From the IMG/VR virus record IMGVR_UViG_3300025162_000043, positions 14,055 to 78,054 of that record: a stretch of DNA of 64,000 nucleotides. The stretch is one strand, 5' to 3'. Within the stretch, counting starts at the first letter, position 1, and every line of letters starts with the position of its first letter. The DNA comes from a virus. A program made the position numbers and the translations under genes. Below are positions 32,698-33,302 of this stretch, piece by piece. The notes beneath the pieces were generated by a model, which was not told the origin of the DNA, did no database searches, and saw only the letters and a program-made list of their open reading frames with translations.

Positions 32698-33093
32698 ATT
32701 TTTCCTTTCGTTGCGGAAACCCCGATGGCTTTAGCCTCGGGGAGGAGCAACGAAATATAATTAATAATTTCTGTTGACATTCTTCTTAATTCCTGTTATA
32801 CATATCACAGTTCTTTGATACATGGTTTGGATAGTAGAAAATAATTGCTTCTATCCAGTAAAATCAATCAAGCATCGTTTTGTGAATAGACCAGAAGGCA
32901 CTCCGCTTGCGGAGGAACCGTTATGTAGGGTCTTTGACTCACAATCAACATCCTCCTCATTATCCGTTAAGGATAAACTGGAAGGCAGGCCACGGTCAAT
33001 TGGCCAACCGTCTGTAAATCTTTCTTGAATTATGTTAAGCATAAGCATTAGAGTCTGGCAAGCCCCGACCCTTCAGGGTCGCGGGTAGTTGAC
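32698..33093 (+). mobile_element. 396-bp non-autonomous IS200/IS605 derivative carrying a promoter and a TnpB reRNA scaffold
   Basis: LE hairpin 32709-32752; TTGACA-N17-TATACA promoter ~32773; 33/39 match to the tnpB 3' end at 32984-33022; RE ending GTAGTTGAC. Confidence 0.85.
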
Positions 33094-33302
33094 ATTTTTA
33101 CACCCTTACCCACCAATTGTAATGCATCATCGCTTTCAATGGCGATCAATGTCCAATCGCATATATCCCCGCCAGTATCACTAAGACCATCAAGATCCCG
33201 CAATCGGAAATACTCCATGTCAAAACAAGGATGCTCCATTGCAATTCTACGAATGGATTTTAATGCTTTTATCATCTCAGCTTCGGCAGATAGATTTGTC
33301 AT
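33048..33302 (-). CDS. hypothetical protein (C-terminus extended into the element RE)
   Basis: 84-aa ORF; reconstructed empty site ends ...GVKI*. Confidence 0.65.
   Translation of the reverse strand: MTNLSAEAEMIKALKSIRRIAMEHPCFDMEYFRLRDLDGLSDTGGDICDWTLIAIESDDALQLVGKGVKMSTTRDPEGSGLARL

Follow-up and report, generated by a model that had tools for sequence, protein, structure and literature searches.

The 64,000-nucleotide (nt) stretch of viral DNA analyzed here (hereafter, the window) covers bases 14055-78054 of the 78,054-base pair (bp) record IMGVR_UViG_3300025162_000043 in IMG/VR; coordinates without a prefix refer to the window, and those marked 'genome' refer to the whole record. The window contains a 396-bp element that represents a discrete insertion, with precise boundaries and no duplication of the target, 3' of the pentanucleotide TTCAT, in antisense orientation between two translationally coupled phage genes (Table 1). 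The element has imperfect subterminal hairpins in both its left end (LE) and its right end (RE), with no terminal inverted repeats; these hairpins resemble the ends of IS200/IS605 elements that encode TnpB. An earlier reading of the sequence alone, without database searches (hereafter, the sequence-only reading), had delineated this element with its hairpins, the transposon-adjacent motif (TAM) TTCAT, a guide starting with ATTTTTACACCC at position 33094, and no tnpB open reading frame (ORF). All these assignments hold. The LE hairpin (32715-46, with an outer stem at 32709-14/32747-52) and the RE hairpin are present as described, TTCAT on the left, ...GTTGAC at the right end, and the guide start agree with the boundaries common to all copies of the element, and a tblastn search of the whole record with the TnpB sequence retrieved, within the element, only a remnant of 12-15 amino acids (aa) (QATVNWPTVCKS, 12 aa). 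When the element is removed in silico, gene 33094..33302(-) is joined to gene 32512-32697(-) via an ATGA stop/start overlap. A 68-aa ORF at 32822-33028 was considered as a possible gene and rejected: the ATG is lost in locus L018, the frame is shifted in the second copy of the element, and there is no Pfam match.

The element belongs to a set of 8 distinct gene-less copies with differing flanks. The second copy in the same record (genome 8396-8791, outside the window) is 97% identical and is surrounded by unrelated sequences; its removal in silico likewise restores an ATGA stop/start overlap. At least six further distinct copies were found in other viral or metagenomic contigs that derive from lake or wetland phages, each with its own right flank, and the RNA contigs described below add further flanks. 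TTCAT precedes 7 of 7 gene-less copies and is also the TAM of the tnpB elements in the window and in loci L008, L010, L016, and L017. The right end is always ...GTTGAC, with the copies diverging from the next base on; the tnpB-linked relatives have the same GTTGAC end or a compensated variant, followed by any base. The same type of LE adjoins tnpB in L008 and the gene for a Y1 transposase (tnpA) in phage G004 (84% identity). TTCAT is the complement of ATGAA, and therefore, this family of elements inserts in antisense orientation at start codons within sets of coupled genes; the tnpB element of the window lies 3 nt past a stop codon, directly at an ATG. In related records, the element is 94-97% identical, with no DNA match at all in the surrounding 1.6 kb, which indicates recent horizontal spread, and no DNA similarity to the flanks of the window element was found in five related virus records.

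The 3' part of the element is a complete omegaRNA scaffold. The structure was derived from an alignment (A2) of 15 distinct tnpB-linked 3' ends, none of them gene-less, including 12 loci from a protein search that encode TnpB 56-84% identical to that of the window; RNAalifold was used for folding, the RE hairpin and the pseudoknot were added by hand, and alignments with the pairing partners slid by 1-3 columns served as the control. This structure comprises six helices, namely, a 5' hairpin, stem 1 (GGnnn/nnnCC, which encloses the loop nnGTCAAn), stems 2 and 3, stem 4 (the RE hairpin), and a pseudoknot between GTCAA in the stem-1 loop and the terminal TTGAC. Across A2, 93% of the cells are paired compared to 33-40% in the slid controls, and in 22 of the 39 pairs both bases vary. 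Pairing is complete (100%) in stem 1 and in the pseudoknot, 3 of the 5 stem-1 pairs covary, and the pseudoknot itself has compensated forms (GTCAC/GTGAC in L011, ATCAA/TTGAT in L012, ATCAA/TTGGT in L015). A covariance model built from the tnpB-linked ends only (R1) matches the window element with 61.8 bits (E-value 4.2e-13) over model positions 1-157 of 157, the match ending exactly at 33093, and recognizes every other gene-less copy at 44-78 bits. No Rfam family reaches its gathering score in the window; the best match, to HEARO (the IscB omegaRNA), scores 22.3 bits, compared to the 83 required, on the opposite strand.

Covariation was detected separately among the gene-less copies. For these 8 copies alone, 90% of the cells are paired compared to 27-48% in the slid controls, and 13 pairs are changed on both sides compared to 0-3. 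In a plain MAFFT alignment of the gene-less copies, the 5' hairpin appears as TTATCC/GGATAA, TTGCCC/GGGCAA, TTATTC/GAATAA, TTAATGTC/GACATTAA, or GTGCC/GGCAC, depending on the copy, and stem 1 changes from GGCCA/TGGCC to GGCTC/GAGCC; the GTCAA/TTGAC pseudoknot is intact in the window element.

The sequence-only reading had reached the same structural conclusion from two sequences, a 39-nt block of the element and the 3' end of the tnpB gene in the window. This similarity is genuine: the blocks at 32984-33022(+) and 18634-18672(-) are identical in 33 of the 39 positions, and none of 100 shuffles contained such a pair. The accompanying claim that five of the six differences preserve pairing proved correct only with respect to the G>C/C>G exchange that converts GGCGA/TCGCC to GGCCA/TGGCC in stem 1. 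The other helix invoked, ACAG/TTGT, was rejected because it crosses stem 1, is paired in 65% of the cases in the relatives, a level attained by 35 of 500 shuffles, and is incompatible with both stem 2 and the pseudoknot; the nucleotides concerned are assigned to the loop of stem 1, to a variable linker, and to stem 2. The remaining four of the six differences fall in unpaired or variable positions. Furthermore, three of the six differences are in synonymous third-codon positions of the tnpB frame, so that the comparison of two sequences alone could not separate RNA structure from former coding sequence. The structural conclusion is right but on better grounds than one compensated pair.

The omegaRNA is preceded by a promoter of its own. 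The hexamers TTGACA (32774-79) and TATACA (32797-802), separated by a 17-nt spacer, are present as the sequence-only reading had them, and the -10 hexamer of the window element is replaced by TATAAT in L058 and by TATATT in L036 and L054; a consensus scanner missed this promoter solely because of the A at the sixth base. An alternative promoter was sought directly upstream of 32825, and no convincing hexamers were found there. The 53-nt 5' module that follows the promoter shows 97% mean pairwise identity among the 8 copies, compared to 53-86% for the other segments, and was detected with nhmmer in the gene-less copies only, at no tnpB locus; it has no match in Rfam, and its complementarity to the rest of the record does not exceed 11 nt. 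Because this 5' region is common to the gene-less copies and absent from the tnpB loci, these copies descend from a gene-less ancestor rather than from repeated deletions. In the element, tnpB was lost, and the promoter together with the complete omegaRNA scaffold was retained under purifying selection.

Relatives of the element are represented in RNA data. RNA contigs 271-340 nt long, with about 90% identity to 32823/32825-33079, were found in four wetland metatranscriptomes. In these contigs, stem 1 and the 5' hairpin have the compensated form seen in L054, and the sequence passes through the contig's own right end (TGGTGCAGTTGAC) into differing flanks, extending 36-62 nt past the position equivalent to 33079; 13 nt of this extension complete the right end. 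The left end of all four contigs falls at 32823-32825, and in one of them, a sequencing adapter abuts that base. The copy in the window itself was found in no RNA run, and the RNA contigs cover neither the left end, nor the promoter, nor the flanks of the window element. These contigs fit a discrete plus-strand RNA that would start at the first base of the 5' module and read into the guide. Together, the R1 match, the covariation among gene-less copies, the conservation of the promoter, and the RNA contigs of the relatives support, much more strongly than the evidence available to the sequence-only reading, a gene-less IS200/IS605 derivative with a promoter-driven, structurally constrained omegaRNA gene. 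We are highly confident that this is a derivative of the PATE type that harbors a selected, probably expressed, stand-alone TnpB omegaRNA.

The candidate partner of this RNA is encoded about 14 kb away in the same window. The assignment of the gene at 18590-19783(-) to TnpB is borne out by Pfam matches to Cas12f1-like_TNB (E-value 1.9e-12) and OrfB_IS605; the RuvC motifs GVDIG, VLENL, and DADINA align with those of ISDra2-type chains, and the RuvC triad is intact. The clade formed by this protein and the TnpB of L006-L017 has lost most or all four of the zinc-finger cysteines of the TNB domain (TSQxDSVSG...RRGxRFY); DADxNA of RuvC-III and the neighboring residues are conserved. The omegaRNA of the tnpB element, which reads its guide from position 18578 downwards and scores 158 bits with R1, matches that of the gene-less element in 74 of 94 core positions, including GGCAGG, GTCAA, CCAAnnGTnTGTAAATC, CAAGCC, and GTAGTTGAC, and has every conserved single-stranded motif in common with it; TTCAT is the TAM of both elements. 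For neither guide does the record contain a second site with up to 2 mismatches. In the complete phage genome G004 (368,758 bp), the Y1 tnpA (85.7 bits) lies beside the 84%-like LE and a tnpB whose product is 69% identical to that of the window, apparently forming an autonomous IS200/IS605 element at approximately 321,838-324,419. Altogether, nine TnpB homologues are encoded in G004 and seven in G005, a related 303-kb phage. A search for close relatives of the TnpB among 185,579 species genomes retrieved only one 2.6-kb contig, which is binned as a Woesearchaeota metagenome-assembled genome; the method employed finds close relatives only, and thus, the clade is not shown to be confined to phages.

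Table 1 Features of the gene-less element, the tnpB element, and hairpin-only relatives in the window
Feature	Position	Strand	Comment
TAM/target pentanucleotide TTCAT	32693..32697	+	Abuts left end; reverse complement of ATGAA, start of gene 32512-32697(-)
Whole gene-less element (PATE-type IS200/IS605 derivative)	32698..33093	+	396 bp; left limit of identity among copies at TTCAT, right limit at GTTGAC
LE imperfect hairpin GGAAACCCCGATGGC/GCCTCGGGGAGGA within outer stem CGTTGC/GCAACG	32709..32752	+	
Promoter, sigma-70-type	32774..32802	+	Same position in all copies
Invariant 53-nt 5' module	32825..32877	+	Hairpin TGGATAG/CTATCCA at 32828-57, 16-nt loop, tail GTAAAATCAATCAAGCATCG
omegaRNA 3' domain	32923..33093	+	Covariance-model match to R1
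5' hairpin of omegaRNA	32960..32976	+	
GGCAGG	32984..32989	+	
Stem 1	32988..33005	+	Loop GTCAA 32995-99
Stem 2	33010..33015/33058..33063	+	Stem 3 inside
Stem 4 (RE hairpin)	33063..33085	+	
Pseudoknot strand TTGAC	33089..33093	+	
Predicted guide ATTTTTACACCCTTACCCAC	33094..33113	+	First bases of right flank; length assumed from ISDra2 (16 nt, PMC10097598)
tnpB	18590..19783	-	Sole TnpB gene in the 78-kb record; candidate partner in trans; length matches intact homologues
Full tnpB element (IS1341-like, no tnpA)	18579..19910	-	TAM TTCAT 19911-15, LE hairpin 19865-97, omegaRNA 18579-18738
Ultra-short hairpin-only relative, ~50 nt	16503..16552	-	LE-like start, GTTGTTGAT end, without omegaRNA scaffold
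Ultra-short hairpin-only relative, 68 nt	17007..17074	-	
Ultra-short hairpin-only relative, 51 nt, after TTCAT	30808..30858	-	
Ultra-short LE+RE hairpin element, 68 nt, after TTCAT	60682..60749	-	Mirror copy in the opposite terminal repeat (genome 3252-3319)

The record also contains four or five much shorter IS200/IS605 derivatives of 50-68 nt that have an LE-like start after TTCAT or TTCAC, end in GTTGTTGAC/T, and lack the omegaRNA scaffold. A weak R1 match at 16503-16625(-) (24.7 bits) overlaps the ~50-nt relative and reaches 73 nt beyond its left end. The presence of these 50-68-nt relatives in the same genome implies that such ends seem to be enough for mobility, and if so, the requirements of TnpA are an unlikely reason for the retention of a promoter and scaffold that span about 300 nt. 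The gene-less element itself also has a shorter variant, with an RNA of about 255 nt, found in L024 (2906-3159(+)) and L036 (1321-1576(-)); the promoter, 5' module, and right end of this variant are unchanged, and its middle part differs, lacking stem 3 and with stem 1 weakened to 3-4 pairs.

The record that harbors these elements is most likely a fragment of a jumbo phage genome because the phages that share its mobile elements include one of 368,758 bp, which is complete and has direct terminal repeats, and one of 303,564 bp. The record ends in a perfect 4,836-bp inverted terminal repeat (genome 1-4836 and 73219-78054), and its completeness is estimated by CheckV at 22%; given this low completeness and the likeness to 300-370-kb phages, the perfect inverted repeat could be an assembly artefact rather than the true genome ends. 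The DNA runs with most of the sampled words of the element are lake and freshwater metagenomes. Among the GenBank phages, there was no similarity match for the surroundings of the element or for the tnpB region, and an invariant 31-mer of the element is absent from the 185,579 species genomes.

Several other features of the window were noted. A promoter-like unit, TTGACAAAT followed after about 16 nt by TAnnnT, is located 6-7 nt ahead of the ATGAA start codons of minus-strand genes (at 28238, 29415, 29600, 37067, 38870, 44997, 57509, and 58645), a spacing that suggests leaderless or near-leaderless mRNAs; the ATGAA starts behind these units are potential TTCAT target sites for this transposon family. 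The region 21500-42000 contains about 20 intergenic copies of a palindrome-centered motif, AAGAAATACTGGCCAGTAAAT, often followed by CAGTAAATGATTCGGTGA (for example, at 21574, 22240, 25069, 28626, 31783, 38003, and 41918), which resembles a phage regulatory or operator-type repeat. A single ORF of 4,242 aa occupies 3051-15779(-) and has no Pfam match at E 0.001. Within the ORF at 46598-48304(-), which encodes a 568-aa protein, about 60 tandem 12-nt units (AACTTGTGAn-like) at 47149-48000 yield a long four-residue periodic repeat.

Several known systems resemble this arrangement. The closest are the PATE-like minimal IS200/IS605 elements encoding omegaRNAs that have been described for the ISGst families of Geobacillus stearothermophilus (Meers et al. 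2023, PMC10055086). Like the element in the window, PATEs encode no protein, have LE and RE hairpins similar to those of co-resident tnpB elements, are presumed to be mobilized by TnpA in trans, and have an omegaRNA that would need a TnpB from another element. In contrast to those residents of a bacterial chromosome, the elements described here reside in phage genomes, in a lineage of lake and wetland jumbo phages, and possess a dedicated, conserved sigma-70-type promoter and an invariant 53-nt 5' module and insert at ATGA-coupled junctions. Mobilized stand-alone omegaRNAs that work in trans and supply extra target sites have been reported (PMC10691335, Altae-Tran et al. 2023, summarising Altae-Tran 2021). 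As portrayed in that summary, these OMEGA loci similarly lack an effector and a transposase, are mobilized, occur in the same genome as effector-bearing loci, and provide additional guides; they differ from the present case in that the activity in trans is experimental there and deduced here, and in the TnpB clade and the TAM (TTCAT here). The structure of the ISDra2 omegaRNA determined by cryo-electron microscopy consists of four stems; its stem-1 loop forms a pseudoknot with bases -5 to -3, and stem 4 has a UUUA loop (PMC10097598). The four stems and the pseudoknot, the identity of stem 4 with the RE hairpin, and the location of the guide directly after the transposon end are all common to the two RNAs, as are UUUA in the stem-4 loop of the window's tnpB copy and a pentanucleotide TAM (TTGAT in ISDra2). 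Nevertheless, there is no detectable sequence similarity to ISDra2, and the RNA described here possesses an additional 5' hairpin together with about 115 more 5' nt and is not part of a tnpB reading frame. Finally, as with the free-standing homing endonuclease genes of T-even phages (PMC13565253), the allele without the insert in a co-infecting relative would be cut by a phage nuclease, with repair spreading the insert; unlike in those systems, the target would be read by a flank-derived RNA, the nuclease gene and the guide belong to different mobile units, and homing is a proposal. The notion of a 'multi-guide, CRISPR-free system', which was central to the sequence-only reading, is not new, having been published for bacteria (PMC10691335, PMC10055086). 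Our search of the literature, the coverage of which is incomplete, yielded no publication that describes such elements in the genomes of phages.

Overall, the element is best explained as a non-autonomous, protein-less IS200/IS605 element of the PATE type in a large freshwater phage, and we consider it likely that its omegaRNA is used in trans by TnpB for homing or retention of the element. Under this scenario, a Y1 TnpA, such as the one encoded beside the same LE type in G004, would move the element in trans. The RNA of the element would read out of the right end, so that each copy would use its own flank as the guide, and a compatible TnpB, most likely the one at 18590-19783, would bind this RNA in trans. 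The complex would then cut TTCAT+ATTTTTACACCC... (predicted target TTCAT+ATTTTTACACCCTTAC) in insert-free genome copies, either after excision of the element or in a co-infecting relative, and recombinational repair of the cut copy would restore or spread the element.

Several observations weigh against this reading. The binding of the element RNA by TnpB and the cutting of the target are what we infer from sequence comparison, and the activity of the TnpB clade, which lacks zinc-finger cysteines, is assumed from conservation and copy number. No TnpA is encoded in the 78-kb record, with the caveat of its low completeness, and the exact 24-nt empty-site junction was not found in public viral contigs, leaving the polymorphism of this insertion unproven. 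The alignment in which covariation among the gene-less copies was counted had been fitted to the R1 model. The RNA evidence comes from relatives, in other samples, in the form of assembled contigs, with the strand deduced from one adapter junction. The left ends of these contigs possibly represent assembly breaks at a repeat boundary, and they are located about 16 nt downstream of where the -10 element would place the transcription start, an offset that points to a processed or trimmed end.

Among the alternatives, the sequence-only reading favored a weapon at the level of the phage: a domesticated TnpB and three dispersed, promoter-driven guides would cut co-infecting relatives lacking the insert, and the phage would benefit from the marker exclusion or homing. 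We regard this possibility as unlikely. The record does have one tnpB alongside three loci that bear guides, the targets would lie at junctions between the phage's own genes, the related jumbo phages carry 7-9 TnpB homologues, and the T-even homing endonucleases (PMC13565253) offer an analogy. However, as with all IS200/IS605 elements, each guide simply consists of the sequence that flanks the respective insertion, so that a benefit to the phage is indistinguishable from selfish homing; moreover, recent mobility and sharing between unalignable phages are the signature of a parasite rather than of a fixed host function, and no empty-site relatives were found to show natural targets. An equally doubtful variant would make the elements a phage-adapted family of promoter-driven guide-RNA genes in which the 53-nt module is a new RNA domain (for example, one that stabilizes the RNA or loads it on TnpB, replacing the processing of tnpB mRNA), again with RNA-guided homing or marker exclusion directed at insert-free co-infecting relatives.

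It is considerably less probable that the 5' module or the whole transcript functions independently of TnpB, as a regulatory small RNA or a protein-binding RNA antisense to the flanking operon, with the omegaRNA being secondary. The module is indeed the most conserved part of the element and is missing from the tnpB-linked omegaRNAs, and the transcript would be antisense to the genes 33094-33302(-) and 32512-32697(-). Yet, the module lacks both extended complementarity in the record and an Rfam family, the flanking genes differ for each insertion, so that an antisense role cannot be a conserved feature, and the covariation in the 3' domain is left unexplained. The least probable interpretation, an inert deletion relic moved by TnpA in which the omegaRNA-like part is the undecayed 3' end of tnpB and the 39-nt similarity is former coding sequence, can draw on the synonymous third positions and on the youth implied by the 97% identity of the two copies in the record, but it is contradicted by the pairs that gene-less copies diverging by up to about 50-85% in individual segments retain or change on both sides, by the conserved promoter and the 5' module, whose absence from tnpB elements makes the gene-less state ancestral, by the hairpin-only elements, which suggest that unused sequence is lost, and by the presence of relatives as RNA.

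The value of these observations is confirmatory and comparative rather than that of a new principle. What is particular here is the dedicated conserved promoter, the invariant 53-nt module, and the targeting of ATGA junctions, as well as the joint occurrence of a tnpB element, omegaRNA-carrying mini-elements, and hairpin-only mini-elements in one phage. The alignments yield a covariance model, a TAM (TTCAT), and a compact, cysteine-poor clade of TnpB. In the phage setting, co-infection makes homing into rival genomes realistic. The element provides a natural example of a TnpB guide RNA as an independent, mobile, promoter-driven gene. It illustrates the passage from a single transposon and its single guide to a nuclease served by many guides, a transition presumed to be part of the route to CRISPR-Cas12.

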